DNA of 61,889 nucleotides, from the NCBI GenBank assembly GCA_038245195.1, contig JBBRSU010000004.1, positions 1 through 61,889 of the forward strand, read 5' to 3'. A program made the translations under genes and the position numbers. Each line of letters opens with the position of its first letter. Within the stretch, counting starts at the first letter, position 1. A model generated the notes under the pieces. It ran no database searches. It had not been told where the DNA came from and saw only the letters and a list, made by a program, of their open reading frames with translations. Source of the DNA: Candidatus Saccharimonadales bacterium (GTDB lineage: Bacteria; Patescibacteriota; Saccharimonadia; Saccharimonadales; UBA10212). Positions 7,387-40,069 of the stretch are shown here, one piece after another.

Positions 7387-8163
7387 TCAAAATAGAAATG
7401 AGCCAACTGCTATTAGAAAACTAATTCCAAGATTAACTATCAGAGATGTAAAAAACATTTTTCGCCCCCAAATATCAGCCCTTAAACTTTCTGAAAATCG
7501 AACACCCTGCCATAGCCAATAGGAGCCGAGGGCTATAGAACCAATAAGATATACATAACCCATATCGCCATAGATGAATAAACCGATGCATGCCAAACTA
7601 AAGCCAGCTATGTACACCAGGATCTGGCGTTTAGTTTTAGCCATTCCGCGACTGACTGGCAGAACCGGCAGCCCAGCGGCCTTGTAGTCTTTATATCTAT
7701 ATATAGCAATGGCGTAAAAATGGGGCATCTGCCAAAAAACCAAAATCAAAAAAAGAAACAGTGCTGATGTGTCCAGTCGGTTAGTTACAGCACAATAGCC
7801 AACTAGCGGTGGGATGGCGCCCGGTATACTGCCAATTAGGGTGCCGTGAACCGTATTACGCTTAGCCCAGCCGTATATTACTACGTAAAAAACAAAGGCA
7901 ATCGCGCACAAACTAAGAACTAAATTATTAACAAAAATACCAATCGTCAAAAATCCGATAAGTCCCAGAATCGAAGCAAATACAAGAGCTGATAAAGGCG
8001 AGATTTGATTAACTACTAGGGCTCGGTTTTTAGTTCGGGCCATCTTCTCATCGATCCCTCTATCGATATAGTTATTGAACACACATGCTGAAGCTATGAT
8101 CAAACCCAAGCCTAGAATGGCCTGGATCATCAATCCAATTAACAGCTGGTGTTGAGTTGCCAA
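7387..8163 (-). CDS. cyoE: Heme O synthase (protoheme IX farnesyltransferase); the true N-terminus probably lies upstream of 8163
   Basis: UbiA-family motifs NNYIDRGIDEKMARTKNR and a polytopic profile. The in-frame sequence upstream of the TTG at 8163 encodes KVYYRLTKPGIIYGNLITALAGFF, the conserved first helix of CyoE/CtaB. There is no ATG/GTG/TTG before it. Confidence 0.8.
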   Translation of the reverse strand: MATQHQLLIGLMIQAILGLGLIIASACVFNNYIDRGIDEKMARTKNRALVVNQISPLSALVFASILGLIGFLTIGIFVNNLVLSLCAIAFVFYVVIYGWAKRNTVHGTLIGSIPGAIPPLVGYCAVTNRLDTSALFLFLILVFWQMPHFYAIAIYRYKDYKAAGLPVLPVSRGMAKTKRQILVYIAGFSLACIGLFIYGDMGYVYLIGSIALGSYWLWQGVRFSESLRADIWGRKMFFTSLIVNLGISFLIAVGSFLF

Positions 8164-9256: not shown

Positions 9257-11223
9257 GCGTAGCGTCCTTGGAGGTCTTCTTCGGTTTTACGAATTTTAGC
9301 AACCGATACAGTATATTCATGATCTTCGGTGGAAGTTCTAATCACAATAGTAGCAATTATAGCCAGAAGACTGACGATCGACAGCCAAAACATATGCCAA
9401 ATCATTCCGAAGCCAAAACTGAATGCCAGACTAGCAATAACCAGCGGCACAATTGTATTTTTGGGCATTTTAAATGAGGTATATTCAGGGTTTTTAGGCG
9501 TTAATTTAGACTGCTTAGCAACCCAAAAAGCATCACGGTCTTCGACTCTCGGGATTTCGGCGAAATTATAAAAAGCCGGTGGCGACGTACCGGACCACTC
9601 CAGTGTTCGGGCATTCCAGGGGTCGCCAGTAGTATCCAAATTCTGGTGGCGATGTTTGATGCTAACTATCAGCTGCAGAATTTGTAGGCCAACCCCAACC
9701 AGTATTACAGCCACACCTATGGCTGCAACAATGAACAGTTGTTGCCACCCTAAGGAAGCCTCGTAATGGTCCAATCGGCGAGTTGCGCCCATTAGGCCTA
9801 ATATATATAGCGGGACGAAAGCCAGTAGAAAGCCGCCTATCCAACAGTAGGCGGCATATCTACCCAACTTTTCATTTAGACTAAAGCCAAAAAATTTGGG
9901 AAACCAATAAGTTAGCCCGGCAAAATAGCCAAAGACTACACCACCTATGATCATCGTGTGGAAATGAGCCACCAAAAATAAACTATTATGTAGCTGAAAA
10001 TCAGCCGGTGGAATGGCCATGATTACACCGGCCACACCCCCAACTGTAAAAGTTGCCACGAAACCCAAAAACCATATCATCGGAGTCGTAAATCGAATCC
10101 GGCCACGGTACATCGTAAACAACCAAGTGAATATTTTAACTCCAGTTGGCACGGCGATGGCCATCGTCATAATTCCGAAGAAGGCATTAACGTTGGAACC
10201 AGCCCCCATTGTAAAGAAATGGTGTAACCAAACTAAGAATGAAAGCAAAACAATCGCCCAGATAGCCCAAACCATTGAAACGTAACCAAATAATGGTTTC
10301 TTAGAAAAAGTGGGCACTATTTCAGAGTAAACTCCGAAGGCTGGCAAAACTAGAATATAAACCTCGGGGTGGCCCCAAGCCCATATTAGGTTTACGTACA
10401 TCATAGGGTTACCCCCAAAATAGCTAGTAAAAAAATGCATGCCTAAGGTGCGATCTAAGGCTAGCATCGTCAAGGTTGCGGTTAGTATCGGAAAAGCAAA
10501 AATGACTAGACTCAGGCTGCCTAAAACGCTCCAGCAGAACATAGGCATCTTCATTAAACTCATACCTGGTGCTCGCATCCGCAGAATTGTCACCAAGAAA
10601 TTTATTCCGGTTAATAGGCTACCAATACCAGCTATCTGTAGCCCCCAAATCCAATAATCAACTCCTACCCCGGGGCTGTAAGCTAGCTCAGATAAGGGGG
10701 GATATGCTAACCAGCCAGTGGCCGCAAAACCACCGATTACCAGCGACAAATTTATTAACATACCACCCATGATGTACAGCCAAAAACTTGTAGCATTTAA
10801 AAATGGAAAAGCTACATCACGTGAGCCAATTTGCATCGGCACCACAAGATTAATCAGCCCGAACATCAGCCCCATGGCTACGAAGAAAATCATAATTGTT
10901 CCATGAGCCGTGAATACTTGTTGATAATGGTTAGGGTCTAGAAAGCCATGGTTAGAGCCAACCGATATAGCTTGTTGGGTTCGCATCATAGCAGCATCGG
11001 TTGCAGCCCTTAGTAGCATTAGTAAGGCAAAGATAATATACATCAACCCGATTTTCTTAGGATCAACGGTGGTTAGCCACTCGTGCCACAGCCATTTCCA
11101 ACGTTTTCTATAAGTTAAATAGGCTAAGACAGTAATCATGACTAAGATCAGAGATACTTGGCCGGCAGCAATTACCCAACCGTGTTGAACTTCACCTAGA
11201 TTTAGACGTCCCAAAAGGCTCAT
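9253..11223 (-). CDS. cyoB: Cytochrome o ubiquinol oxidase subunit I (heme-copper oxidase catalytic subunit)
   Basis: 656 aa. WAWGHPEVYIL, HHFFTMG and VAHFH motifs carry the canonical His ligands. Confidence 0.95.
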   Translation of the reverse strand: MSLLGRLNLGEVQHGWVIAAGQVSLILVMITVLAYLTYRKRWKWLWHEWLTTVDPKKIGLMYIIFALLMLLRAATDAAMMRTQQAISVGSNHGFLDPNHYQQVFTAHGTIMIFFVAMGLMFGLINLVVPMQIGSRDVAFPFLNATSFWLYIMGGMLINLSLVIGGFAATGWLAYPPLSELAYSPGVGVDYWIWGLQIAGIGSLLTGINFLVTILRMRAPGMSLMKMPMFCWSVLGSLSLVIFAFPILTATLTMLALDRTLGMHFFTSYFGGNPMMYVNLIWAWGHPEVYILVLPAFGVYSEIVPTFSKKPLFGYVSMVWAIWAIVLLSFLVWLHHFFTMGAGSNVNAFFGIMTMAIAVPTGVKIFTWLFTMYRGRIRFTTPMIWFLGFVATFTVGGVAGVIMAIPPADFQLHNSLFLVAHFHTMIIGGVVFGYFAGLTYWFPKFFGFSLNEKLGRYAAYCWIGGFLLAFVPLYILGLMGATRRLDHYEASLGWQQLFIVAAIGVAVILVGVGLQILQLIVSIKHRHQNLDTTGDPWNARTLEWSGTSPPAFYNFAEIPRVEDRDAFWVAKQSKLTPKNPEYTSFKMPKNTIVPLVIASLAFSFGFGMIWHMFWLSIVSLLAIIATIVIRTSTEDHEYTVSVAKIRKTEEDLQGRYA

Positions 11224-14737: not shown

Positions 14738-15859
14738 TTAATTAAACTGGCTTAAAGCACTATTTATTTGGCTGTAATCGTCAATGCCGGCACTCGGGAT
14801 CAGGGCACTTTGACCAAAATAAGTCGTATAGCTATCAAGATAATTTCGCGAATTCAAACTCCTTAGGCTTAATGACTGGAGCTTGGAGTCGGGAATCGAA
14901 TTAAAAAGTCCAAAAAGTGGTCGTGCTTCGGAAGCAGTAACATCGGTTTTAATATTACTTGCCACCGCATTTAAAACTCGAGCATTAGTTCTGGGATTGA
15001 GAACCAGCTTCCAATTAAGTTTCTGTTTGATAGCACTAAGCACTTGGCGTTGATGCTGGGTTCGATCGAAGTCTGCCTGGGCAAAACCATATGAACCTTC
15101 GGCATCACCCCTGGCCCTAGTTAGGTTAAGGGCGGTTTGACCGTCGAGTTGTGCTTGGCCGTTTGTCAGTTTCAGGGGCCCACCATCAGCCAGGCTGATG
15201 TTAGGATCAAACAAGCCTCTAGGGTCAGTACTTTGTATATTTACCGTAACTCCGCCCAACGCATTTACCGTTTGCTTGACCGTTGCATAATTAACAAGGA
15301 CATAGTAGTTAATGGGGGTTTGAAAATTAGTCGTTATGATTTGTTCCAGCAAGCCTATACCATTATCCTTATAAGCTTCGTTAATTTTTCCATAGTCGTA
15401 ACCGGGAATTTTCACATATAGGTCCCTGGGGATACTTAGCATATAACCCGATTTGTTAGACGGGTTCATACTTAATAGAATAATTGAATCAGTCAGGCTG
15501 GCACCGGCATGCCCTGGATCATCAACTGAATATCCAACTAGCAAAACATTAACACGGCCATTACCAGTGGCCTTAAGTGAGCCACCACTAATTAAGTTAT
15601 ATAAACTACCGCTACCAAATAGCTTTTGACTAGCTGAGCTAATATTCCTCGCGTCCCAGACTCCAAGCAACACTACTCCAATAAACAGCGATAGCAATAA
15701 GCTAAAAATAATCTTTTTAACACGGCTTTTTGTTGTTTTAAGTTTAACAACGGGTCGGACTTCTCGAAGGCTAGATCTTGGGGAATATGAACTTACACTA
15801 TGTGGCAGATTGCGTCCGGTCTGGATAGGCAAGTCGGATTTTAAGCGGTTTTTAGCCAT
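14738..15859 (-). CDS. LytR-CpsA-Psr (LCP) family cell-wall glycopolymer transferase
   Basis: N-terminal TM anchor. NVLLVGYS...SLTDSIILLSMN...SIPRDLYV...GKINEAY and LTRAR...DFDRTQHQRQV LCP motifs. Confidence 0.85.
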   Translation of the reverse strand: MAKNRLKSDLPIQTGRNLPHSVSSYSPRSSLREVRPVVKLKTTKSRVKKIIFSLLLSLFIGVVLLGVWDARNISSASQKLFGSGSLYNLISGGSLKATGNGRVNVLLVGYSVDDPGHAGASLTDSIILLSMNPSNKSGYMLSIPRDLYVKIPGYDYGKINEAYKDNGIGLLEQIITTNFQTPINYYVLVNYATVKQTVNALGGVTVNIQSTDPRGLFDPNISLADGGPLKLTNGQAQLDGQTALNLTRARGDAEGSYGFAQADFDRTQHQRQVLSAIKQKLNWKLVLNPRTNARVLNAVASNIKTDVTASEARPLFGLFNSIPDSKLQSLSLRSLNSRNYLDSYTTYFGQSALIPSAGIDDYSQINSALSQFN

Positions 15860-15869
15860 TAAATACCTA

Positions 15870-16865
15870 TTATGCCGAAGGCAGATGAACTATGAAAGAC
15901 GAACCTTTGCCAATGGCGGTTTTAACCTCGATGTGGCCGCCGTGAACTGTAGTGATTTTCTTGGCAATAGCTAAGCCTAGTCCGTAACCACCAGCCGTTT
16001 GTTTTGATCTGGAATCATCGGTTCGATAAAAGCGTTCAAAAATCATTGGCAGATCAGTCTGCTTAATCCCCCTACCTTTGTCGGTTATGTCTATAAGCAC
16101 ATCACGATGCTGCTTACGACTAGTAATAATAACGCTACTTTTAGCGGAGCTATACTTAATTGCATTATCAATAAATATCGCAAAAAGTTCTACTAAACTT
16201 TCGGAGTCACCCTTAAGCCTATGGTCGTCTGATTTATCGATTAATCTAATGTTTTTTTGTTCGGCGGCTTTAGCTAAGCGATCAATTGCTAGAGAAACAA
16301 CTGTTTTAGAAGAAACATCTCTCGGATCTTCAATCCGGCCATTGCCGTTAGCTAAACGCAGTAGACCTTCTGAAAGGGTTTTGAGCTTTGCCACCTCTTC
16401 CAGATTACTTTTGATTAAGGCAATAGCTTCTTCCTTTTTCAGTCCAGGGTTTCGTATGGCCACTTCGTTTTCGGTTTGAATGGCGGTAAGCGGTGTCCTG
16501 AGCTCATGCGAAGCATCAGCTGCGAAGCGAGTTTGCGATATTAAAGCTTGCTCAATTGGCTCCAGGGTTCGTCGGGCTAACCAATAACTAGCCACACCAC
16601 CGCCAACTAAAACTAACACATTAAACAATACCAAGTTAGCCTTTAAATGGCCACGATCTTCGCTTAGCTGACGTTGTCTTAGACGTGAATAATTATCGGA
16701 GTCACCGGGTCCTAAAAAATTATTAAAATAACCTATTTCGTGATTGACGTTACGTTGTAAATCTCCAGCCGAGACTCGAAACAAAAGTCCGCTAAACATT
16801 AGACTGACGGCCATAATAATCGCTAAGTACCATAGGGTTAAGCGTAAAGCGGCTGAATGAAACAT
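15870..16865 (-). CDS. Sensor histidine kinase, minimal two-TM input, no HAMP/PAS
   Basis: H-box ADASHELRTPLTAI about 15 residues after TM2. N box DNAIKYS. G boxes DKGRGI and GGYGLGLAI. Confidence 0.9.
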   Translation of the reverse strand: MFHSAALRLTLWYLAIIMAVSLMFSGLLFRVSAGDLQRNVNHEIGYFNNFLGPGDSDNYSRLRQRQLSEDRGHLKANLVLFNVLVLVGGGVASYWLARRTLEPIEQALISQTRFAADASHELRTPLTAIQTENEVAIRNPGLKKEEAIALIKSNLEEVAKLKTLSEGLLRLANGNGRIEDPRDVSSKTVVSLAIDRLAKAAEQKNIRLIDKSDDHRLKGDSESLVELFAIFIDNAIKYSSAKSSVIITSRKQHRDVLIDITDKGRGIKQTDLPMIFERFYRTDDSRSKQTAGGYGLGLAIAKKITTVHGGHIEVKTAIGKGSSFIVHLPSA

Positions 16866-17542
16866 TAGCGTCTGTCCTCCAACACATATCCGAAACCGCG
16901 ATTGGTTTGTAGAAGCGGTTTGCCGAAAGGTTTGTCTATCTTATTTCTTAAATAACCAATATATACTTCAACTGTGTTTGGTAGAACATCAGCGTCAAAA
17001 TCCCAGACATGAGAAATAATATTATCTTTTGATAAAACTCGGCCAGAATTTCGAATTAGGTATTCCAGAAGAGCAAACTCTTTAGCGCTTAAATCGATTG
17101 TTTTCCCAGCCCGTTTTACTTCATAACTAATCGTATCTAGACTTAAATCGGCAATTTTTAGAGTGTTAGACTGGGCTTGTTGGGGTCGCCTCAATAAGGC
17201 CTTAATCCTGGCAAGTAGCTCTTCAAAAGAAAACGGTTTAATAAGATAGTCATCCGCCCCAGAGTTCAGGCCTTCGACTCTATCCCTTACTTGATCCTTG
17301 GCGGTTAGCATTAATATTGGCGTATGTATCCCTGCCTCCCTGACCTGACGGCATACTTCCATACCGTCAATAGTGCCAGGCAGCATTCGGTCAATTATCA
17401 TGAGATCGTAGGCTTCGTTTAAGGCCGAGCCTAGAGCAGAGTCGGCATCGTACTCCACATCTACGGCATAATTCTCTTGGACTAAACCTTGTTTTAGAGC
17501 GTTGGCAATTTTGTGCTCGTCTTCAACTACAAGTATTCTCAT
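16865..17542 (-). CDS. OmpR/PhoB-family response regulator
   Basis: MRILVVEDEH, the phospho-acceptor region IIDRMLPG, LTAKD, and a winged-helix C-terminus (LSAKEFALLEYL...GFGY). The stop overlaps the HK start. Confidence 0.92.
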   Translation of the reverse strand: MRILVVEDEHKIANALKQGLVQENYAVDVEYDADSALGSALNEAYDLMIIDRMLPGTIDGMEVCRQVREAGIHTPILMLTAKDQVRDRVEGLNSGADDYLIKPFSFEELLARIKALLRRPQQAQSNTLKIADLSLDTISYEVKRAGKTIDLSAKEFALLEYLIRNSGRVLSKDNIISHVWDFDADVLPNTVEVYIGYLRNKIDKPFGKPLLQTNRGFGYVLEDRR

Positions 17543-17549
17543 TAAGCCT

Positions 17550-17583
17550 ATTCTACTTCAATCAGACTGAAAATTAGCTGAAT
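17550..17583 (-). promoter_or_regulatory. Candidate promoter/operator of the chromosomal RR-HK-LCP operon: ATTCAG-N5-TTTCAG direct repeat plus TAGAAT
   Basis: Minus-strand reading is ATTCAGCTAATTTTCAG (plus coordinates 17567-17583). The second half-site starts 17 bp upstream of TAGAAT (17550-17555), which ends 7 nt before the ATG at 17542. The geometry matches the four island sites. Confidence 0.45.
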
Positions 17584-30726: not shown

Positions 30727-30765
30727 TAAAAAGCGGTAGCAAATGCTACCGCTCTCGGTTTTTAC
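30727..30765. terminator. Orphan terminator-like hairpin at the probable left edge of the accessory block
   Basis: 9-bp perfect stem AGCGGTAGC (30732-30740) / GCTACCGCT (30745-30753) with loop AAAT. An A-run lies 5' and ctcggTTTTT lies 3'. On the minus strand the stem is followed directly by TTTTTAT. No intact gene reads into it from either side. Confidence 0.5.
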
Positions 30766-30820: not shown

Positions 30821-30856
30821 ACTTTAAGCTACTTTTAAAGTTTCGTGCTATATAAT
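30821..30856 (+). promoter_or_regulatory. Island operator/promoter 1 (upstream of the RR): TTTAAG-N5-TTTAAA plus TATAAT
   Basis: TTTAAG 30823-30828, TTTAAA 30834-30839 (11-bp period) and TATAAT 30851-30856 (17 bp after the start of the second half-site). The ATG at 30863 lies 6 nt after the hexamer. Confidence 0.6.
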
Positions 30857-30862
30857 CAGTTT

Positions 30863-31540
30863 ATGAGAATACTTGTTGTTGAAGACGAGCATCGTATTGC
30901 ACAAGCCATAAAAGAAGGTTTAGAACAAGAGACCTATGCCGTAGATGTCTGTCATGACGGCGAAGATGGATACAATACTGCACGCTCTGATGACTACGAC
31001 CTGATTATTTTAGATGTCATGCTGCCTAGTATGGACGGCTTCGAAGTATGCAAAAAACTTCGAACTGCAAAAGATCACACACCAGTGCTTATGCTGACTG
31101 CAAAAGATCAAAATAAAGACGTTATACGTGGTTTAGACACCGGTGCCGACGATTACTTGCCAAAACCGTTCTCATTCGAAGTCTTGTTAGCCAGAATAAG
31201 AGCTTTGCTACGCCGTCCACATCAGGCAATCGGGGAGATACTTGAGGCAGGTAGTTTAACGTTAAACACTACATCCCACGAGGTAAAAAGGTCAGGAAGA
31301 ATTATCAAACTATCTAGTAAGGAATATGCCCTTCTTGAATATTTATTACGAAATAAAGGCAAGGTTTTAAGTAAGAACAATATCATGACCCATGTTTGGG
31401 ACTTTGATGCAGATATACTGCCAAACACAGTTGAGGTGTTCATTACCTACTTACGTGCAAAAATCGATAAGCCTTTCAAGGAACCAGAGCTAATAAGCAC
31501 TGTCCGTGGCTTTGGCTATAAGATAGGAGAAGCATCATGA
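30863..31540 (+). CDS. OmpR/PhoB-family response regulator (island paralogue)
   Basis: MRILVVEDEH, ILDVMLP, LTAKD and the winged helix LSSKEYALLEYL...LPNTVEVFITYLRAKIDKPF...GFGY. By eye about 60% identical to the RR at 16865-17542. I chose the ATG at 30863 over the GTG at 30845. Confidence 0.92.
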   Translation: MRILVVEDEHRIAQAIKEGLEQETYAVDVCHDGEDGYNTARSDDYDLIILDVMLPSMDGFEVCKKLRTAKDHTPVLMLTAKDQNKDVIRGLDTGADDYLPKPFSFEVLLARIRALLRRPHQAIGEILEAGSLTLNTTSHEVKRSGRIIKLSSKEYALLEYLLRNKGKVLSKNNIMTHVWDFDADILPNTVEVFITYLRAKIDKPFKEPELISTVRGFGYKIGEAS

Positions 31541-32574
31541 CTACAGACAAAGTGTTACGGTTTGCCCGTTCAACAACGGGTCGTTTGGCGATGACTTACT
31601 TAGGCATCATTATGCTGATGAGCATTGGCTTTAGCCTAGTTTTTTATAATACTTCAGCAGGTCAACTTGGACGGCAACTTCCACCTTCGTCTGTTTTTAA
31701 CCGCCCGTCACGAGACTTCCCCTCAGTATCACCAATAACAAATCGAGCCGAGATTGAAGCTTTCTTGCAACAACGAATCACTGAAGGCCGTGACGCACTG
31801 CGAATAAGGTTAATTGGACTAAACGTGATGGCTTTGATCGGCGGCGGAGTTCTTAGCTATGTGCTTGCCAGGCGGACGCTGAAACCAATTGAAGAAGCGA
31901 TGGAAGCACAATCCCAGTTTATTGGAGATGCATCGCATGAGCTGAGGACTCCGCTGACTGCGATCAAGACAACCAATGAAGTAGCTTTACGCAAACCAAA
32001 GCTTAACCTGACTGATGCCAAGGAAATCATTAAGCAGAATACTGATGATGTCTCGAAACTTCAGGCACTAACAGATGGACTACTGAGATTGGTTAACGAT
32101 AAGAGCTCAGATCATAGCTTAAAGCCTATTTCCCTGCAAGAGGTAGTAGCTGAGGCTATGAACCAAGTGGTTCAATTAGCTCAAAATAAAAACATTTCGG
32201 TTAATGATCAAGTACCCAATATAAAGGTACTTGCTAATAAACAAAGCCTCATACAATCAATCACCATATTGCTAGATAATGCCATAAAATACAGTGAGCC
32301 TAAAACAGTCGTCACGCTGAGCGGATCATCAGATGCTAAGCTTGCCCATTTGAAGGTCAGTGATCAAGGCATAGGCATCCGTGCAGCCGATCTTCCTCAT
32401 ATCTTTAAACGGTTCTATCGTGCCGACCGGTCACGGAATAAGCAACAATATGACGGTTACGGGTTGGGTCTATCGATAGCAGATAAGTTAGTCAAGCAAC
32501 AACACGGTGAGATTTCAGTGGATAGTACGCCAGGTCACGGTGCGACTTTCACTATAAAATTGCCTCTGGCCTAA
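31537..32574 (+). CDS. Sensor histidine kinase, minimal two-TM input (island paralogue)
   Basis: Two TM helices separated by a loop of about 55 aa. GDASHELRTPLTAI follows shortly after TM2 with no HAMP. DNAIKYS, DQGIGI and GYGLGLSI are present. ATGA overlap with the RR gene. Confidence 0.9.
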   Translation: MTTDKVLRFARSTTGRLAMTYLGIIMLMSIGFSLVFYNTSAGQLGRQLPPSSVFNRPSRDFPSVSPITNRAEIEAFLQQRITEGRDALRIRLIGLNVMALIGGGVLSYVLARRTLKPIEEAMEAQSQFIGDASHELRTPLTAIKTTNEVALRKPKLNLTDAKEIIKQNTDDVSKLQALTDGLLRLVNDKSSDHSLKPISLQEVVAEAMNQVVQLAQNKNISVNDQVPNIKVLANKQSLIQSITILLDNAIKYSEPKTVVTLSGSSDAKLAHLKVSDQGIGIRAADLPHIFKRFYRADRSRNKQQYDGYGLGLSIADKLVKQQHGEISVDSTPGHGATFTIKLPLA

Positions 32575-32609
32575 GCTTTAAGCAAACTTTAAAGTTCCGT
32601 TGGTATCGT
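32575..32609 (+). promoter_or_regulatory. Island operator/promoter 2 (upstream of the ABC permease)
   Basis: TTTAAG 32577-32582, TTTAAA 32588-32593 (11-bp period) and TATCGT 32604-32609 (16 bp). A 42-nt leader with an AGGA-type SD precedes the ATG at 32652. Confidence 0.55.
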
Positions 32610-32651
32610 TGTGGCATCACTTCAATAAATAAAAGGAATTTAGGATAATGC

Positions 32652-34019
32652 ATGAATCCAGTATCTAGAGGAATAAGAAACGCCTTTCGTAATTCAATAC
32701 GAACGTTCTCCATTGTAGTTATCTTAGGATTAAGCGTCGGGTTAGCACTTTCTATGTTAGTTGCTCGGCAGGCCGTTCAAGAAAAAATTGATTCGGTTAA
32801 AACTTCGATAGGTAATACTGTCAGCATAGCTCCTGCTGGCTCTCAAGGTTTTCAAGGTGGTGGTGAACCCTTGACTACTGAGCAACTGAGCAAGTTAGAA
32901 ACAGTAAACCACGTTACTGGTGTTACTCAATCACTCAGCGATCGTCTCACGAGCGATACAAGCAATTTAACCTCAGCAATAGATGCCGGTAGCCTCGGAA
33001 ACCGTCAAGCTGGAAATTCTGGAGTAGGCTTTCAGCAAGCTCCACCACAGGGTGGCAATCAACAGCCAGGAGGTAGCTCCAATCAAGAAATTACCCGTAC
33101 ATTTACTCCTCCAATAATTGTGACTGGCATTAATGACCTATCAAAAGTTTCAGCATACGGTGGTGATACGGTCTCGTTTACGAGCGGTCAAGCACTGGAT
33201 CCAACAAAGGATGAAGAGGTAGCCGTGGTTGGTAAAGCCTTGGCTGAAAAAAATAATCTAAGTGTCGGCTCTACTTTTACTGCTTACGACAAAACTATCA
33301 AGGTAGTTGGTATATACGATACCGGTAATACCTTCTCTAATGCCGGTTTAATAATGTCGCTTGCTACACTACAAAGACTTTCTAACCAAGCTGGGGATGT
33401 TACTAGTGCTACAGCTACCGTTGACTCCATCGATAACATTGACTCTGCGGTTACTGCCATCAAGAGTGCGTTGGGGGACAAGGCTGATGTTACGAACTCG
33501 CAGGAGAGTGCCAAGTCCACGATTGCTCCACTAGAGAACGTAAAAAGTATTTCCCTGTTCAGCTTACTTGGCGCACTAGCTGCTGGGTCGGTAATCATCC
33601 TTCTGACTATGATGATGATTGTCCGTGAACGCCGACGCGAAATAGGTGTCATGAAAGCCATCGGCTCTTCCAACTTAAAAACTATGTTCCAGTTCATGAG
33701 TGAGGCAGTAACGCTCACACTACTCGGATTAATTGTCGGTCTTGTGATTGGAGTAGCTGCCTCGAACCCAATTACAAAAGTATTGGTCAACAACAGTACG
33801 ACTAGTACGACTCAAACAATTGGTCGGTCTGGACAAGGTGGTCCAGGAGGGTTTGGACGTAACAGCTTAACTAGCGTCCGGAATGTTAAAGCCTCAGTGG
33901 GCTTGGATATTCTCGGCTATGGTGTTGCCAGTGCGTTCATTATCGCTATTGTCGGTAGCGCACTGCCCGCACTATTCATTAGCAAAATAAGACCAGCAGA
34001 AGTAATGAGGGCTGAATAA
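32652..34019 (+). CDS. MacB/FtsX-type ABC transporter permease with a large extracytoplasmic domain
   Basis: 455 aa. One N-terminal TM, a periplasmic domain of about 270 aa (with Gly/Gln-rich inserts), then three C-terminal TM helices with the FtsX-like region RRREIGVMKAIGSS. Confidence 0.85.
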   Translation: MNPVSRGIRNAFRNSIRTFSIVVILGLSVGLALSMLVARQAVQEKIDSVKTSIGNTVSIAPAGSQGFQGGGEPLTTEQLSKLETVNHVTGVTQSLSDRLTSDTSNLTSAIDAGSLGNRQAGNSGVGFQQAPPQGGNQQPGGSSNQEITRTFTPPIIVTGINDLSKVSAYGGDTVSFTSGQALDPTKDEEVAVVGKALAEKNNLSVGSTFTAYDKTIKVVGIYDTGNTFSNAGLIMSLATLQRLSNQAGDVTSATATVDSIDNIDSAVTAIKSALGDKADVTNSQESAKSTIAPLENVKSISLFSLLGALAAGSVIILLTMMMIVRERRREIGVMKAIGSSNLKTMFQFMSEAVTLTLLGLIVGLVIGVAASNPITKVLVNNSTTSTTQTIGRSGQGGPGGFGRNSLTSVRNVKASVGLDILGYGVASAFIIAIVGSALPALFISKIRPAEVMRAE

Positions 34020-34020
34020 T

Positions 34021-34704
34021 ATGTTACAAGTTACAGATTTAAAGAAGACTTTTAAGTCCGGCGATACTAAGGTCGCGGCTATAGATGGTATAAGTTTCGG
34101 CGTACCAGACGGACAGTTCGCATCAGTTATTGGTAAGAGTGGTAGTGGTAAAAGTACCCTGCTTAGCTTACTAGGCGCACTAGATAAGCCGACAAGCGGA
34201 CATATTACTGTCGGCGATAAAGATATAACTAAGTTGAACGATCACAAACTCATAAAATATCGCTGCGAAAAGATCGGTTTTGTTTTCCAAAGTTACAATC
34301 TTGTGCCAAACCTAACAGCAATTGAAAATGTGATGTTGCCAATGGAGTTTGCCGGACTTTCCAAAAAGCAACGGTTGCAGCGAGCGAAGCTGTTACTTAA
34401 CCAAGTTGGCTTGGACGACAACAAGCAAAAGCGTAAGCCCGGACGACTAAGTGGGGGTGAGCAACAAAGAGTTGCAATTGCCCGAGCACTTGGTAATAAA
34501 CCAAAGCTAATCCTGGCGGATGAGCCAACTGGTAACCTTGATTCTCAAACCGGTAAAATGATCTTCGACTTGCTGCACGATCTAGCAAAAAGTGAAAATA
34601 CTACTATCGTAGTTGTAACTCACGATCTAGAAATCGCCGGAAAGACAGACAAAACCTTCCAGCTTACTGACGGTAAGTTAGCTCCGGTAGGAGCGAGAGT
34701 ATGA
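34021..34704 (+). CDS. ABC transporter ATP-binding protein (MacB/LolD-like)
   Basis: Walker A GKSGSGKST, Q-loop, signature LSGGEQQRVAIARAL, Walker B LILADEPTGNLD, and H-loop VTHD. Confidence 0.95.
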   Translation: MLQVTDLKKTFKSGDTKVAAIDGISFGVPDGQFASVIGKSGSGKSTLLSLLGALDKPTSGHITVGDKDITKLNDHKLIKYRCEKIGFVFQSYNLVPNLTAIENVMLPMEFAGLSKKQRLQRAKLLLNQVGLDDNKQKRKPGRLSGGEQQRVAIARALGNKPKLILADEPTGNLDSQTGKMIFDLLHDLAKSENTTIVVVTHDLEIAGKTDKTFQLTDGKLAPVGARV

Positions 34705-35183
34705 ACGAGCACGATCATAACAAGGGAGGATCGGGCCTATTTGCTAAGGTTGGTGCTGGTTTGTTAGTCGTACTCATAGTTGCTGTACTAAGCTTTCTTG
34801 GCGGTATGCAGTACCAAAAGGGTAAAAAGTCCGCAACAACGGACCAAACTGCTTCGGGAGGATCCTCAAGCCAAGGATTTGGTGGTTTTCAAGGTGGCCC
34901 AGGAGGTGGTGGGCGTACGAATATAGTACGAGGTCAAGTTACCGCAATTAGTTCAACGAGCATATCCGTGCAAGATAGCAGGAGTAATTCCACGACTACT
35001 CTCGATATAACTTCTGACACAACGATTACAGACAATGGCCAGACTGCCAGCCTCGATAGTATTAAGGTTGATGATAATGTAGTGGTGCGCCCAAATAGTT
35101 CCAACTCAAAACAGGCCGATCAAATTATACTGAATCCCCAAGTACCCTCAGGTACACCTAGTTCAAGTACTACAACAAACTAA
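34701..35183 (+). CDS. Membrane-anchored Gly-rich / Ser-Thr-rich beta-type protein (DUF5666-like guess)
   Basis: 160 aa. N-terminal TM, then the SSQGFGGFQGGPGGGGR linker, then VRGQVTAISSTSISVQD...ITDNGQTASLDSIKVDDNVVV. 4-nt overlap with the ATPase gene. Confidence 0.6.
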   Translation: MNEHDHNKGGSGLFAKVGAGLLVVLIVAVLSFLGGMQYQKGKKSATTDQTASGGSSSQGFGGFQGGPGGGGRTNIVRGQVTAISSTSISVQDSRSNSTTTLDITSDTTITDNGQTASLDSIKVDDNVVVRPNSSNSKQADQIILNPQVPSGTPSSSTTTN

Positions 35184-35217
35184 CTTTAAACTGTTTTTAA
35201 GGTTAGTTTACTAAGCT
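35183..35217 (+). promoter_or_regulatory. Island operator/promoter 3 (upstream of the island LCP gene)
   Basis: TTTAAA 35185-35190, TTTAAG 35196-35201 (11-bp period) and TAAGCT 35212-35217 (16 bp). The ATG at 35226 lies 8 nt after the hexamer. Confidence 0.55.
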
Positions 35218-35225
35218 GTGTGCAT

Positions 35226-36311
35226 ATGGACGAGCGGCAAACCATTGAGCGTACACGGCTGAGTTATTTGAAGATGCCTTCACTGAGGCATACGTTGAGA
35301 TTAGTCTTAGTAATTACGTTGACAGCAATAATTACAATCGGAGGATGGGTCGGCTGGAAAGTCTATGCCAGTGCTTCAAGAATTACTGGCAACAAGAATC
35401 CTCTGAGTCTGGTCAGTGCATTCTCGCCTGTTGACCTTAAGGAAGTAAATGGCCGTACTAATATATTGTTGGCTGGATATTCTAAAGATGATCCGGGTCA
35501 TAGTGGGGCGGAACTCACTGACTCAATAATGATACTCAGCATGAATCAGTCTACAAAGTCAGCGGTTGTTATTAGCGTGCCACGTGATTTGTACGTAAAT
35601 GTACCTAGCTATGGGTATAGCAAAATAAATGCAGCCTACGAATATGGAGAAAGTGATAACTTTTCGGAGGCTGGCTATGCTAATGGTGGCATGGGACTGC
35701 TTGAGAAAACAATAAAACAAACACTGGGCGTAGATATAAGTTATTACGGCTTGATAAATTACACCGCCTTCAAGTCAGCAGTTGATGCCGTTGGCGGAAT
35801 TACCATTACTATCAGTAGCAGTAACCCGCGCGGTATATACGACTCTAATACGGGTATTAAGTTTGCTAATGGGAGCGTTACGCTAGATGGACAGACAGCA
35901 CTCAATTTAGCTCGATCACGTGGCGATTCGTATTATTCCTACGGTTTTCCAAATAGTGACTTCGATCGTACGAAATACCAACAGGCTATGCTATTAGCAC
36001 TTAAGGGTAAGGCCAGTAATGCAAGCGTGATAGCAAATCCGCTAAAGATTGGAGAATTAGCTGATTCTGTGGGCGATAACGTTAAGACCAATATGCAAAT
36101 TAACGAAATGGAAACTCTATATTCAGTCATGAAAGATGTCAACGACAACAATATAGAGACAATTACGCTAAACAATATTGAGGGAACAAATCTGTTGATT
36201 GACTACCGTACACTGAATGGTCAATCAGCCCTAATCCCAGCTCTGGGTCTAAATAACTTTTCGGCGATCGATAACGCAATCGATAATTTGCTTGCGCCCA
36301 AAACACAATAA
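35226..36311 (+). CDS. LytR-CpsA-Psr (LCP) family transferase (island paralogue)
   Basis: TM anchor. NILLAGYS...ELTDSIMILSMN...SVPRDLYV...SKINAAY, and LARSRGD...DFDRTKYQQ. The alternative GTG start at 35220 would lie only 2 nt after the -10-like hexamer. Confidence 0.85.
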   Translation: MDERQTIERTRLSYLKMPSLRHTLRLVLVITLTAIITIGGWVGWKVYASASRITGNKNPLSLVSAFSPVDLKEVNGRTNILLAGYSKDDPGHSGAELTDSIMILSMNQSTKSAVVISVPRDLYVNVPSYGYSKINAAYEYGESDNFSEAGYANGGMGLLEKTIKQTLGVDISYYGLINYTAFKSAVDAVGGITITISSSNPRGIYDSNTGIKFANGSVTLDGQTALNLARSRGDSYYSYGFPNSDFDRTKYQQAMLLALKGKASNASVIANPLKIGELADSVGDNVKTNMQINEMETLYSVMKDVNDNNIETITLNNIEGTNLLIDYRTLNGQSALIPALGLNNFSAIDNAIDNLLAPKTQ

Positions 36312-36314
36312 CGA

Positions 36315-36350
36315 CCTTTTAAGTAATGTTTAAGCTTGTTTGTCTAACCT
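36315..36350 (+). promoter_or_regulatory. Island operator/promoter 4 (upstream of the beta-lactamase-like gene)
   Basis: TTTAAG 36318-36323, TTTAAG 36329-36334 (11-bp period) and TAACCT 36345-36350 (16 bp). The ATG at 36357 lies 6 nt after the hexamer. Confidence 0.55.
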
Positions 36351-36356
36351 ACTTAT

Positions 36357-37208
36357 ATGATGAAACGCATAGCATTGTTTGGCATCGCAATTATCACCGT
36401 TACGCTAGTCTCTTATTACGTTGTTCATGCTTTACCAGTAAAATCTGCGGGTAACCTAACAGCAACGAGCGTAGTAGCTAGTGCAGAGGATATACCAGCT
36501 GATGTACCACGTGACGTAGCCACAGACCTTAATACCGTCATTGAAAAATACTCGAATTTATCCATTGCGGTATCTTTAACCGATTTGGAGAATAATCAGA
36601 CCTACAATGCAGGTGCTGTTGATACGACGTTCAAAGGAGCGAGTACTATAAAGGTATTTACCGCAGTGTACTATATGCATCAAGTTGAAGCTGGTAAAGC
36701 CAGCTTGACGCATCAAATTGACGGTGTAAGCGCCCGTACGCTTCTGCAACGGATGCTTCAAAATAGTGACAACGACGCTTGGGCAGCCATCACTACCTAC
36801 CTTGGCAGCAGTAATATCCAGTCATATGCCCAAAGTATTGGTCTGACTTCATTTTACGGTTACGACTACAATGCGATCAAAGCTTCTGACTACGCGAAGT
36901 TGCTAGTTAAGTTGTACAAAGGTGAGCTTATTAGTGACGAGAATCGCGCTACCCTATATTCCTTCATGCAAGACACTGATAATGACACCCTCATCCCAGC
37001 TGCTCTACCAAACGATGCCACGGTCTATCACAAATGGGGAGATTTGTGGGGCAATTTGCATGATATTGCCATAGTCCAATACCAAGGACACTCCTTTGCG
37101 CTTGTTATTTTTACAAATAATACTGATGGAACCCAGGCTCTTTACTCTACTCAAGTAGCAGCCATCAAAGAAGTTACGAAGACAGCTATAATAGACCTCA
37201 AGTATTAA
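36357..37208 (+). CDS. Class A beta-lactamase-like serine hydrolase (atypical motifs)
   Basis: N-terminal anchor/signal. SxxK is present as ASTIK and SDN as NSDND. The third box reads HKWG instead of K(T/S)G, and no clear ExxLN omega-loop motif is visible. Confidence 0.65.
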   Translation: MMKRIALFGIAIITVTLVSYYVVHALPVKSAGNLTATSVVASAEDIPADVPRDVATDLNTVIEKYSNLSIAVSLTDLENNQTYNAGAVDTTFKGASTIKVFTAVYYMHQVEAGKASLTHQIDGVSARTLLQRMLQNSDNDAWAAITTYLGSSNIQSYAQSIGLTSFYGYDYNAIKASDYAKLLVKLYKGELISDENRATLYSFMQDTDNDTLIPAALPNDATVYHKWGDLWGNLHDIAIVQYQGHSFALVIFTNNTDGTQALYSTQVAAIKEVTKTAIIDLKY

Positions 37209-37260
37209 AATATACAAAGTCCTAGACTTCCAACTCTTTCGCGGTACCCTGTACCTTGCA

Positions 37261-38547
37261 ATGGAAACAACACAAGAACTCAAATTCTGTCTCTATGCTC
37301 GGAAGTCGAGTGAATCTGACGAACGCCAAGCAATGTCTATCGACTCTCAAATCAAGGAAATGCAAGCTATGGCAACTCGCGAGGAGCTGAACGTCGTCGT
37401 CATAAAAAAAGAGAGCTTCTCGGCAAAGGAATCAGGGCACAGGCCTGTATTCAATGAGTTGCTGCACGACCTGAGGAATGGCAAGTACAATGCAATTCTG
37501 ACGTGGGCTCCCGACCGACTAAGCAGAAATGCAGGAGACTTAGGATCGCTCGTAGATTTAATGGACTTGAATCGACTTCAGCGCATCCGCACATTTGGAC
37601 AGAGCTTCAGCAACACGCCAAACGAGAAATTCTTACTGATGATTCTGTGCTCACAAGCCAAACTCGAGAACGATAATCGAGGTATCAACGTAAAGCGCGG
37701 CATACGTGCCAAATGCGAAATGGGCTGGCGACCAGGTGCAGCACCCATTGGTTATGTCAATCGAGCATTCGGTGGTGTTAGAGATATTGTGCTTGATACT
37801 GATCGAGCACCGGTTGTAAAAGAAATGTTTGAGCGATCGGGATTACTACACCAAAGCGGCAGAACAATAAAAGATTGGCTGGACGAAACAGGCTTTAAGA
37901 CAAAGTCAGGTGCAGAATTGTCCCTTAGTCAGATATACAGAATCATGACCAATCCTTTCTACTACGGATACTTCGAGTATCCTGCTGGTGGCCCGCTATA
38001 TAAAGGCATGCACCCACCAATCATTACTAAAGAGTTATTCGACATGGTTCGGTCACGGATGGACTCACTTGTACCCGAAAAACCTGCATGGGGATCGAAA
38101 CAATTCCCATTTAAGCATCTATTCTACTGCGGGTCGTGTGGTTCTAGGCTAACTGTCGAGGAGCACTTCAAAAAAAGAGTAGATGGTGGCAAGAACAGGC
38201 ATGTTTACTACCGTTGCACTAAGTCAACTAAAGATCCCGACTGTCCCGAACGTTCGATCACTACCATTATGATAACCGAGCAAATTTTAGTGATGATAGA
38301 AGCATCAGACTTTGACGATATCGAGCCGACCGAGAAGCTATTCAATAGGATTGAGCAACACAAACGAATAACGAGCCAATTAATCAAAGATCATGGACTA
38401 CATCTCTCTGAGCGAGCTCACTTCAGGAACTATGCTAGCTATGTGCTCAAGCAGGGCACTATAAGCGAGCAAGACGGACTTCTAAGGGGTCTAAATGTCC
38501 CATTATTCGTCAAAAACAAGCAAATCTACCGCAGATTAACCGACTAA
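37261..38547 (+). CDS. Large serine recombinase (resolvase catalytic domain, recombinase domain and zinc ribbon)
   Basis: YARKSSESDERQAMSIDSQ (catalytic Ser region), APDRLSRN, the recombinase-domain GW/PxGY pattern, and CGSCGSRL...YYRCTK...CPE zinc-ribbon cysteines. Confidence 0.88.
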   Translation: METTQELKFCLYARKSSESDERQAMSIDSQIKEMQAMATREELNVVVIKKESFSAKESGHRPVFNELLHDLRNGKYNAILTWAPDRLSRNAGDLGSLVDLMDLNRLQRIRTFGQSFSNTPNEKFLLMILCSQAKLENDNRGINVKRGIRAKCEMGWRPGAAPIGYVNRAFGGVRDIVLDTDRAPVVKEMFERSGLLHQSGRTIKDWLDETGFKTKSGAELSLSQIYRIMTNPFYYGYFEYPAGGPLYKGMHPPIITKELFDMVRSRMDSLVPEKPAWGSKQFPFKHLFYCGSCGSRLTVEEHFKKRVDGGKNRHVYYRCTKSTKDPDCPERSITTIMITEQILVMIEASDFDDIEPTEKLFNRIEQHKRITSQLIKDHGLHLSERAHFRNYASYVLKQGTISEQDGLLRGLNVPLFVKNKQIYRRLTD

Positions 38548-38647: not shown

Positions 38648-38674
38648 CTGGCTGGGGAGGAGGGATTCGAACCC
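38648..38674. repeat. Distal copy of the 27-bp direct repeat, identical to the 3' end of tRNA-Gln (att-like scar)
   Basis: CTGGCTGGGGAGGAGGGATTCGAACCC at 38648-38674 is identical to 39994-40020. The flanking bases differ on both sides. The sequence beyond it cannot be folded into the rest of a tRNA. Confidence 0.85.
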
Positions 38675-38843: not shown

Positions 38844-39896
38844 ATGGGTAGACTGGACGAACGACTCGAAAAACTATCATTGTCAACAGTAACTCTGCTG
38901 AGTCAGATTGATAATCTGAACGGTCAGTGGATTGGTGGAGCACGATTGAGCCCCCAAGCCCTCGGCCGACTAAAGCGTTCCGTGCTGGTGACGTCGACTG
39001 GTGCTTCCACCCGTATTGAAGGCGCAAAATTATCAGACGAAGAAGTGGAGAAGCTCATGCGGGGCTTGTCCATGCAAAAGCTAATCGATCGTGATGCCCA
39101 AGAGGTACGAGGCTATTACGAAATACTTGCTACCGTTTTCGATTCTTGGCAAGACATTGAGCTCACCGAGAGTAGTATTAAGAACCTGCATTCGCAGCTT
39201 CTGAAGTATTCAACCAAAGATGAACGGCAGCGTGGTGAATACAAGAAATTAGAGAATAAGGTGGTGGCGACAGATGTTGCAGGTAAGGTAGTAGGTACCA
39301 TCTTTGAAACGACTGCAGCCTATCTGACCCCAAAGGAAATGAGCGAGCTGGTTGATTGGACAAGAACAAAGTTAGCTGAAAAGGCGGATCATCCGCTTCT
39401 GGTTATTGCGAACTTCATTATTGAATTTCTAAAGATCCACCCATTTCTTGATGGGAATGGCCGTCTATCTCGTATTCTCACCAATCTACTGATGCTTCAA
39501 GTCGGGTATCAATACATGCCCTACGTATCTCATGAAAAGTTCATAGAAGATAACAAAACGGAATATTATATTGTTCTACGGAAAAGTCAGACTACTTTTA
39601 GGGCAGCAGATGAAACCATAGCACCATGGGCTGCATTCTTTCTAGAAATTGCTCAAGCACAAGCTAGGCAGGCAATCGCGTTATTGTCTGCTGAATCAAT
39701 CGAAAAACTCCTTTCACCTAACCAACTACTGGTCTGGCAGTACATTCAAACAGTAGACGAAGCAAGAACACAAGATATTACTGAAGCAACTAGCGTTGCC
39801 CGTCCTACCGTGCGCCAGGCTGTTGAGCGACTTCTAACACTCAAAAAGATAGAACGAATTGGTCAAGGAAGAACTACTCGTTATAGAAAGATATAG
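38844..39896 (+). CDS. Class II Fic-domain protein (AMPylase-type motif) with an N-terminal inhibitory motif and a C-terminal winged HTH
   Basis: The Fic motif HPFLDGNGRLSR matches HxFx(D/E)GNGRxxR. STRIEG upstream matches the (S/T)xxxE(G/N) inhibitory helix. The C-terminus ARPTVRQAVERLLTLKKIERIGQGRTTRY is wHTH-like. SD GAAGGAA is present. Confidence 0.88.
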   Translation: MGRLDERLEKLSLSTVTLLSQIDNLNGQWIGGARLSPQALGRLKRSVLVTSTGASTRIEGAKLSDEEVEKLMRGLSMQKLIDRDAQEVRGYYEILATVFDSWQDIELTESSIKNLHSQLLKYSTKDERQRGEYKKLENKVVATDVAGKVVGTIFETTAAYLTPKEMSELVDWTRTKLAEKADHPLLVIANFIIEFLKIHPFLDGNGRLSRILTNLLMLQVGYQYMPYVSHEKFIEDNKTEYYIVLRKSQTTFRAADETIAPWAAFFLEIAQAQARQAIALLSAESIEKLLSPNQLLVWQYIQTVDEARTQDITEATSVARPTVRQAVERLLTLKKIERIGQGRTTRYRKI

Positions 39897-39977: not shown

Positions 39978-39994
39978 CTCTGTTAAATACCTGC

Positions 39995-40069
39995 TGGCTG
40001 GGGAGGAGGGATTCGAACCCCCGAATGCCAGTACCAAAAACTGGTGCCTTACCACTTGGCCACTCCCCA
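39995..40069 (-). tRNA. tRNA-Gln (anticodon UUG), CCA encoded
   Basis: Manual cloverleaf: acceptor UGGGGAG/CUCCCCA with the U1-A72 pair and G73 discriminator typical of bacterial tRNA-Gln. D arm GCC/GGC. Anticodon stem CCAGU/ACUGG with loop UUUUGGU (anticodon UUG). T arm GGGGG-UUCGAAU-CCCUC. 75 nt including CCA. Confidence 0.9.

Follow-up and report, generated by a model that had tools for sequence, protein, structure and literature searches.

The response regulator RR1 appears to control a block of envelope genes in the 61,889 bp of a Saccharibacteria (TM7) genome analysed here (the whole of this stretch is referred to as the window), acting through a direct repeat, TTTAAR-N5-TTTAAR, that lies ahead of four transcription units beginning with its own. 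We propose, with a probability of roughly 0.8, that the four boxes are the operator of this adjacent regulator and would support phosphorylation-dependent, autoregulated class-II activation at promoters without a -35 element. The predicted units encode RR1 with its sensor histidine kinase (HK), a MacB-type ABC exporter (its permease is termed FtsX below) with a small anchored protein, a LytR-CpsA-Psr (LCP) cell-wall ligase and a beta-lactamase-like (bla-like) hydrolase. An earlier note on this DNA had suggested the same operator assignment, which is supported here by the specificity of the boxes, their conservation and the co-variation of the half-sites with the recognition helix of the regulator, and it is on these grounds that we predict binding by RR1; each computational check suggested in that note had a favourable outcome. 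The boxes and the hexamers that follow them are located as follows.

30823-30839, + strand: site 1 box TTTAAGctactTTTAAA, half-sites at 30823 and 30834; predicted RR-HK promoter, autoregulation
30851-30856, + strand: -10 hexamer TATAAT, 11 nt past the site 1 box and 6 nt ahead of the ATG
32577-32593, + strand: site 2 box TTTAAGcaaacTTTAAA, half-sites at 32577 and 32588; predicted promoter of the FtsX-ATPase-small protein operon
32604-32609, + strand: -10-like hexamer TATCGT, 10 nt past the site 2 box
35185-35201, + strand: site 3 box TTTAAActgttTTTAAG, half-sites at 35185 and 35196; predicted LCP promoter
35212-35217, + strand: -10-like hexamer TAAGCT, 10 nt past the site 3 box and 8 nt ahead of the ATG at 35226
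36318-36334, + strand: site 4 box TTTAAGtaatgTTTAAG, half-sites at 36318 and 36329; predicted promoter of the bla-like gene
36345-36350, + strand: -10-like hexamer TAACCT, 10 nt past the site 4 box and 6 nt ahead of the ATG

Direct reading of the sequence reproduced every half-site and hexamer position given in the earlier note, together with a half-site period of exactly 11 bp at all four sites and a second half-site that starts 16-17 bp ahead of the hexamer in each case, equivalent to a spacer of 10-11 nt. When both strands of the window were searched, the pattern had exactly four matches, all on the + strand, compared with a chance expectation of 0.42; none of 100 dinucleotide-preserving shuffles reached four. 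All four boxes are intergenic, and intergenic DNA accounts for ~8% of the window (P ~5e-5). Ten one-mismatch matches outside the four sites fall, every one, within open reading frames (ORFs), as do the generalised matches elsewhere, and none of these was retained as a further regulon member. No box was found at the other ~50 putative genes of the window (59 ORFs of ≥100 aa), and the pattern search confirmed that the gap between the bla-like gene and the downstream recombinase (37209-37260) has none either. The description of the genome as AT-rich had to be dropped, the G+C content being ~42% throughout the window with no deviant stretch.

The positional bias extends beyond the window. As background we used 1.16 Mb of Saccharibacteria DNA, where the strict pattern has 39 matches, 36 of which are followed by TAnnnT 9-12 nt downstream, where we roughly estimate from base composition that ~7% would carry such a hexamer. 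The genes behind these matches encode FtsX (14, or 15 with the match in locus L155), the response regulator (11), small anchored proteins (~8), LCP (1) and a bla-like protein (1), leaving two or three orphan matches.

The layout of the four gaps is that of class-II promoters, for which the papers on the experimentally proven CiaR, PhoB and PmrA promoters served as reference: the 11-bp period, the 10-11 nt spacer and the absence of a -35 element are common to all four sites. No sigma70-type -35/-10 pair was detected at any of the gaps, and the hexamers at sites 2-4 (TATCGT, TAAGCT and TAACCT) are weak. The earlier note had the boxes overlapping the -35 position; with a span of ~-40 to -24 (assuming that transcription starts 7 nt past the hexamer) they would take the place of the -35 element instead of simply overlapping it. 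Transcription entering from upstream would be stopped by a single hairpin:

30732-30763, + strand: intrinsic terminator-like hairpin with a 9-bp stem (6 G-C pairs) and a T-run as tail, insulating the block from upstream transcription

This is the sole convincing + strand terminator within 30.5-38.7 kb, and none was found between the units of the block in that interval. Since there is no -35/-10 pair, the hexamers of sites 2-4 are weak and a terminator precedes site 1 with none between the units, class-II activation with autoregulation is the most likely mode of control. The membrane kinase (31537-32574), responding to a presumed signal, would phosphorylate RR1, which would then dimerise and bind head-to-tail to two TTTAAR half-sites one helical turn apart; seated at ~-40 to -24, in place of a -35 element, it would recruit RNA polymerase to the weak -10 hexamers. 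Promoter P1 would drive RR-HK in a positive autoregulatory loop from a leaderless transcript, P2 the MacB-type ABC exporter and the small anchored protein from a transcript with a leader and a Shine-Dalgarno sequence, and P3 and P4 the LCP ligase and the membrane-anchored bla-like hydrolase, respectively, both leaderless; the internal RR-dependent promoters would thereby boost the downstream units.

Three of the four predicted transcription starts lie very close to the coding sequence. At sites 1, 3 and 4, and in ~50 RR orthologues (for example, L010 at 7980-8003), the -10 hexamer ends 6-8 nt ahead of the ATG, giving a TAnnnT-N6-8-ATG layout. RR, LCP and bla-like starts have no Shine-Dalgarno sequence, while FtsX genes keep a leader of 30-45 nt with AAGGA; in the window TATCGT at 32604 is followed by a leader of ~35-40 nt with AGGA at 32642-32645. 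Three of the four promoters in the window are therefore probably leaderless, and these layouts suggest the same for RR, LCP and bla-like genes throughout the Saccharibacteria.

The same geometry could be read in the opposite sense, with RR1 as a repressor whose occupancy of -40 to -24 blocks RNA polymerase until dephosphorylation or titration relieves it. The boxes do overlap the core promoter region, some regulators of the OmpR family repress from overlapping sites, and the perfect TATAAT at site 1 might work without an activator. Against this, none of the four sites has a -35-like hexamer and three have weak -10 hexamers. Moreover, the distance to the -10 hexamer is identical to that of activated CiaR, PhoB and PmrA promoters, and rigid spacing of 10-11 nt over ~60 diverged promoters would be needless for a repressor site. 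We consider repression unlikely and retain activation by RR1 as the working interpretation.

To follow the boxes in relatives, we assembled 29 Patescibacteria loci via the RR, 80 metagenomic loci via alignment of the FtsX permease and 4 loci via homologues of the bla-like protein; RR orthologues at 60-80% identity belong to Candidatus Saccharibacteria (TM7) genomes. Alignment of 15 orthologous HK-FtsX gaps with MAFFT, made without motif selection, gave a mean identity of 49%, and the sole invariant columns were TTAAG and TTTAA of the half-sites, so that the boxes are conserved relative to their flanks. The spacing of TAnnnT is also kept in these gaps, with the hexamer sequence itself variable. 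A direct repeat of 11-bp period with a -10-like hexamer precedes 63 of 84 FtsX orthologues (shuffle mean 1.7; 1.7% of random genomic windows match). At RR promoters, the box lies 38-41 nt ahead of the ATG in 23 of 24 non-redundant box-carrying examples, a set that was selected by regular expression and is backed by the motif-blind alignment and the shuffle controls, and in the closest lineages the RR box is followed by TAnnnT, then 6-8 nt, then ATG. An information-content profile over all relaxed matches was abandoned, as reverse-strand matches to the palindromic TTAA spoiled it, and the annotated promoters were used instead.

Conservation extends to the distal targets. Orthologues of the bla-like gene with 81, 70, 50 and 47% identity, together with that of L005, have a direct-repeat box, N10-11, nAnnnT and an apparently leaderless start; the box-carrying examples are those of L005, L162, L163, L164 and L165, and the L164 and L165 genes keep the box although they adjoin no two-component system (TCS). 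L162, L163 and L099 retain the site 3 box just behind the small-protein gene, and in L102 the LCP orthologue has a box ~40 nt ahead of its ATG. Other LCP orthologue promoters were uninformative, being distant matches with uncertain start codons. Strict matches seemed few in the related loci at first, but lack of conservation was rejected as the reason: drift of the half-sites between lineages accounts for the scarcity.

The drift follows the regulator. Half-sites change between lineages from TTTAAG to CTTAAG, TCTCAG or TTTCAG, and the type varies with the recognition helix of the adjacent RR: half-sites with a central A accompany VEVF-[IV]-[TAK]-YLRAK helices and those with a central C accompany VEVY-[IV]-G-YLRNK helices. 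The counts are 30/4 versus 3/25 at RR promoters (p=5e-10, 17 non-redundant loci) and 28/0 versus 4/10 at FtsX promoters (p=7e-7, 14 non-redundant loci), Fisher p-values that overstate independence because the helix classes are probably two clades and may go back to one ancient split. In terms of residues, F193/T195/A199 is found with TTTAAG, and TTCAG with Y193/G195/N199. Both kinds are represented in the window, as a paralogous operon on the - strand stands behind its own type of box.

30863-31540, + strand: RR1, OmpR/PhoB-type response regulator (Pfam Response_reg and Trans_reg_C), recognition helix NTVEVFITYLRAK with F193/T195/A199 by alignment to E. coli BasR/PmrA
14738-17542, - strand: paralogous operon RR2-HK2-LCP2; RR2 at 16865-17542 with helix NTVEVYIGYLRNK, HK2 at 15870-16865, LCP2 at 14738-15859
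17567-17583, - strand: paralogue box ATTCAGctaatTTTCAG (TTCAG-N6-TTCAG), followed by N11, TAGAAT at 17550-17555, 7 nt and the ATG at 17542

RR2 is 63-64% identical to RR1, and its box has the geometry of site 1 with a different half-site; within the window the C-type pattern occurs at RR2 only. LCP2 starts 10 nt past the HK2 stop codon, has no box of its own and is presumably co-transcribed with RR2-HK2. Using the base contacts of PmrA (PMC10570014), we find that RR1 retains N188 and V192, two of the contact residues, in the alignment to E. coli BasR/PmrA, whereas H195, which contacts a base, corresponds to T in RR1, to G in RR2 and to N in oral lineages; H193, with no listed contact, is F in RR1, Y in RR2 and F in oral lineages. 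Among the first 18 RRs, T195 versus N195 was considered as a predictor of box presence and discarded, as L026 contradicts it and the split between F/T/A and Y/G/N is clearer.

These data bear on whether a different regulator, either RR2 or an unlinked factor, might occupy the boxes. RR2 could conceivably cross-bind, given the identity between the paralogues and their very similar helices; a small, putatively winged-helix-like gene lies between box and RR in oral TM7, and bla-like genes far from any TCS keep their boxes. However, the RR2 promoter has a TTCAG-type box with no TTTAAR box nearby, half-site type follows the helix of the adjacent RR over 31 non-redundant loci, and the promoter of the RR itself carries the box in almost every non-oral lineage. 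Binding by another factor is accordingly quite unlikely, and RR1 remains the favoured occupant. Tentatively, and with somewhat less than an even chance of being right, we extend the proposal: a TCS family found across the Saccharibacteria, including human-associated lineages, may run, via a CiaR-like box, a compact envelope regulon made up of a MacB-type exporter, the uncharacterised 'FLGGMQ' anchored protein, an LCP ligase and a PBP/beta-lactamase-like hydrolase, the family having split into two paralogous lineages whose operators (TTTAAG versus TTCAG) were re-programmed by changes at helix positions 193, 195 and 199, which would let two copies coexist without cross-talk in one very small genome.

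Several observations weigh against control of the block by RR1 as we describe it. The literature that we searched holds no binding, footprint, transcription start-site or expression data for any member of the Saccharibacteria, and this genome was scanned over 62 kb. Site 1, with its perfect TATAAT, could be active in the absence of an activator. Support for LCP as a conserved target is thin and consists of one orthologue (L102) and the paralogous operon. The co-variation has exceptions, namely an FN-type helix with a TTTAAG box in L026 and several Y-type FtsX promoters that are hybrids of TTAAG and TCTCAG, and its statistics share the phylogenetic caveat given with them. Finally, RR genes of oral TM7 have no clean box directly upstream, the box being placed one gene further up.

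In these oral/gut loci, L010 (7648-7967) has the box CTTAAGaatacTTTAAG, N10 and CATACT ahead of a gene of ~85 aa immediately upstream of the RR, an arrangement also seen in L006, L011-L016 and L019. The ~85-aa product is putatively winged-helix-like, as judged from its sequence alone, and the RR's own upstream region in such loci contains irregular TTAAA/CTAAA repeats. The human-associated loci also have a small anchored-protein gene directly behind a box after the HK, the boxes of L010 and L017 being at 9703 and 10653, respectively. Its family has a conserved '...(F/L)GGMQ...' motif just past the transmembrane (TM) helix and a low-complexity tail (window 34701-35183, L010 9771-10115, L006 ~9766, L017 ~10712), and the small '(F/L)GGMQ' proteins may be the most constant member of the regulon. 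Strict boxes were also seen in L003 (5756, - strand) and L009 (7920, - strand) ahead of small anchored proteins of a different type (M..EE(L/M)YL..RKKS followed by a TM helix). These stand first in a second, more distant ABC unit, with an ATPase of 39% identity, and in L009 that unit is divergent from the RR promoter.

The remaining genes of the block and its neighbour, whose earlier assignments were borne out by Pfam, are as follows.

31537-32574, + strand: sensor histidine kinase with HisKA and HATPase domains, 2 TM helices, an outside loop of ~50 aa and no HAMP domain
32652-34019, + strand: MacB-type ABC permease with MacB_PCD and FtsX domains and 4 TM helices
34021-34704, + strand: LolD/MacB-like ABC transporter ATPase (Pfam)
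34701-35183, + strand: 160-aa protein with an N-terminal anchor, a '...FLGGMQ...' motif and a Gly-rich linker; its C-terminal part is beta-rich
35226-36311, + strand: TM-anchored LCP glycopolymer-to-peptidoglycan ligase (Pfam)
36357-37208, + strand: TM-anchored class-A beta-lactamase-like serine hydrolase (above the Pfam Beta-lactamase2 threshold)
37261-38547: large serine recombinase (Pfam)

The ABC unit had been described as an ATPase with an anchored protein; both are present, and the FtsX/MacB permease was missing from that description. The 160-aa anchored protein and its family have no match in Pfam or NCBIfam. RR1 belongs to the OmpR/PhoB family by PF00072 (1e-33) and PF00486 (4e-25) and matches the DrrD, PhoP, MtrA and BasR structures over its full length. 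Its best named NCBIfam model, CopR/CusR/SilR (TIGR01387), scores 247 against a cut-off of 279 bits, below membership, and Pfam detected no metal-resistance genes in the cluster; named NCBIfam subfamilies were set aside for the RR, HK and bla-like proteins alike, all scoring below cut-off. The bla-like protein has the motifs STIK96, SDN137 and KWG226 (KWG instead of K[TS]G), no E166-type ExxLN motif was found in it, and at 70 bits against a cut-off of 200 for NCBIfam bla_class_A it falls outside the true class A beta-lactamases. On this score and these motifs 'beta-lactamase-like serine hydrolase' is the safe name, and the protein is probably a penicillin-recognising hydrolase or sensor and not an efficient beta-lactamase. 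The products of the block are all predicted to be membrane-anchored or extracytoplasmic, and since they are located at the cell envelope, a response to envelope stress or antimicrobials is the most likely role of the regulon.

The earlier note referred to the block as an island, a label that is partly supported. The stretch from the RR to the small protein is found in differing genomic contexts, with homology to relatives that begins at box 1, stops with the small-protein coding sequence and gives way to unrelated flanks, but it is not bounded by att sites. The only att-like repeat, a perfect direct repeat of 27 nt (38648-38674 and 39994-40020), corresponds to the 3' end of tRNA-Gln (39995-40069, - strand), the only known RNA family detected in 30.0-40.5 kb. 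This att-like repeat brackets a 1.3-kb segment with a Fic/DOC gene alone (38844-39896), the serine recombinase lying just outside; the window has no third copy, and the repeat was on that account rejected as a boundary of the TCS block. By comparison with window positions 34701-37208, L162 (6472-7849) and L163 (1988-3397) have the bla-like gene directly after the small protein at the site 3 box with no LCP between, so that the LCP gene and site 4 of the window look like an inserted, self-promoted unit. In L099 (4489-4931) a site-3-type box, TTTAAAcagatTTTAAG, is followed by inverted serine recombinase fragments (82% identical to that of the window) with no target gene; this box is perhaps a promoter that lost its gene, or else the scar of a rearrangement. 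Mobility of the cassette, whose borders these comparisons do not define, is plausible.

The repeats might on this evidence mark where the cassettes of a mobile modular block join or recombine and not be a transcription signal, a proposal to which the varied contexts, the unit apparently inserted relative to L162 and L163, the adjoining recombinase and its relative abutting the site 3 box in L099 all lend something. We regard it as very improbable, given that box distance is fixed to the -10 hexamer and the start codons and not to gene ends, that boxes precede RR and FtsX in genomes without a nearby recombinase, and that no box lies between the bla-like gene and the recombinase. That the boxes are a generic Saccharibacteria promoter or UP-like element, or an accident of composition, is effectively refuted: the motif is A+T-rich and its self-complementary TTAA is common, yet the four matches exceed expectation and fall in one cluster, the other putative genes of the window have none, and in the 1.16 Mb they stand almost exclusively ahead of one set of gene families.

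Saccharibacteria and other bacteria of the candidate phyla radiation have tiny genomes and very few regulators, and our literature search found no described Saccharibacteria TCS, operator, regulon, promoter architecture or leaderless transcription. If control by RR1 is correct, the box is a defined operator, ready for a position weight matrix, with which the regulon could be read from any Saccharibacteria genome, and the main two-component circuit of these epibionts would be devoted to the cell envelope through an exporter, a glycopolymer ligase and a penicillin-recognising hydrolase. Such a circuit would be relevant to survival on host bacteria and under antibiotics. The activator-dependent leaderless promoters would represent a combination that is rarely examined, and the pairing of residue 195 (T, G or N) with a central A or C in the half-site would make a compact natural test of the helix recognition code of the OmpR family. 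The split into two paralogues, if it is as we suppose, would be a natural and readable example of regulon insulation and a first handle on envelope and host sensing in epibionts.

Amongst known systems the box most resembles the experimentally defined box of streptococcal CiaR, TTTAAG-N5-TTTAAG (later NTTAAG-N5-TTTAAG), located 10 bp upstream of the -10 (PMC3091779). The two agree in hexamer and direct orientation, in the 5 nt between half-sites and in the 10 nt that separate the box from the -10. CiaRH is likewise of OmpR type and is linked to cell-wall integrity and beta-lactam tolerance, as the regulon here includes a cell-wall ligase and a beta-lactamase-like gene, and in the CiaR helix VVEVYVSKVRKKL (aa 189-201) E191, V192 and R198 match RR1, with a small hydroxyl residue at position 195 in both (S versus T). 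The differences are considerable: the phylum is unrelated, the RR1 helix NTVEVFITYLRAK contrasts with the conserved VVEVYVSK[VI]RKKL, the targets differ with no csRNA genes seen here, three of the four promoters are apparently leaderless, and many second half-sites here end in A or T where CiaR requires a final G. We therefore rejected RR1 as a CiaR orthologue, the organism being a Saccharibacterium with a different helix and the box alone the same.

The PmrA/BasR box, XTTAAY-N5-XTTAAY, replaces the -35 element and is represented in structures 4S05 and 8JO2 (PMC10570014). The TTAA core, the hexamer-N5-hexamer arrangement, the overlap with the -35 position and, as proposed here, class-II activation are common to both systems; N188 and V192 are retained in RR1 and the PmrA regulon is also one of envelope remodelling. 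The H193/H195 positions are F/T in RR1, by contrast, and PmrA targets LPS modification in Gram-negative bacteria; at 186 bits against a cut-off of 330 (NF007928), RR1 was not accepted as a PmrA/BasR equivalog. The pho box of PhoB comprises two 7-bp direct repeats of 11-bp period at -41 to -25, so that the period is identical, the position relative to the transcription start nearly so, and the -35 is absent in both; activation after phosphorylation and a head-to-tail dimer, proposed for RR1, are further parallels. The PhoB half-site is CTGTCAT, and RR1 differs in this sequence and in physiological role and reaches 199.5 with the PhoB model, whose cut-off is 296.

With the TCS-controlled ABC detoxification modules BceRS-BceAB and HssRS-HrtAB of the Firmicutes, the block shares an OmpR-type TCS located beside, and presumably inducing, an ABC exporter of FtsX fold. 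The permease here is of the ~4-TM MacB type with MacB_PCD, as opposed to the 10-TM BceB with its large extracellular domain, and the kinase has a loop of ~50 aa where the Bce sensor is loop-less and intramembrane; permease type and kinase loop together rule out a Bce-type TCS/ABC module. Bce-type and HssRS-HrtAB operators presumably also differ from the TTTAAR box. Set against these systems, the design is textbook, and what is new is the phylum, the content of the regulon, the apparent leaderless activator-dependent promoters and the paralogue-specific switch of operator.

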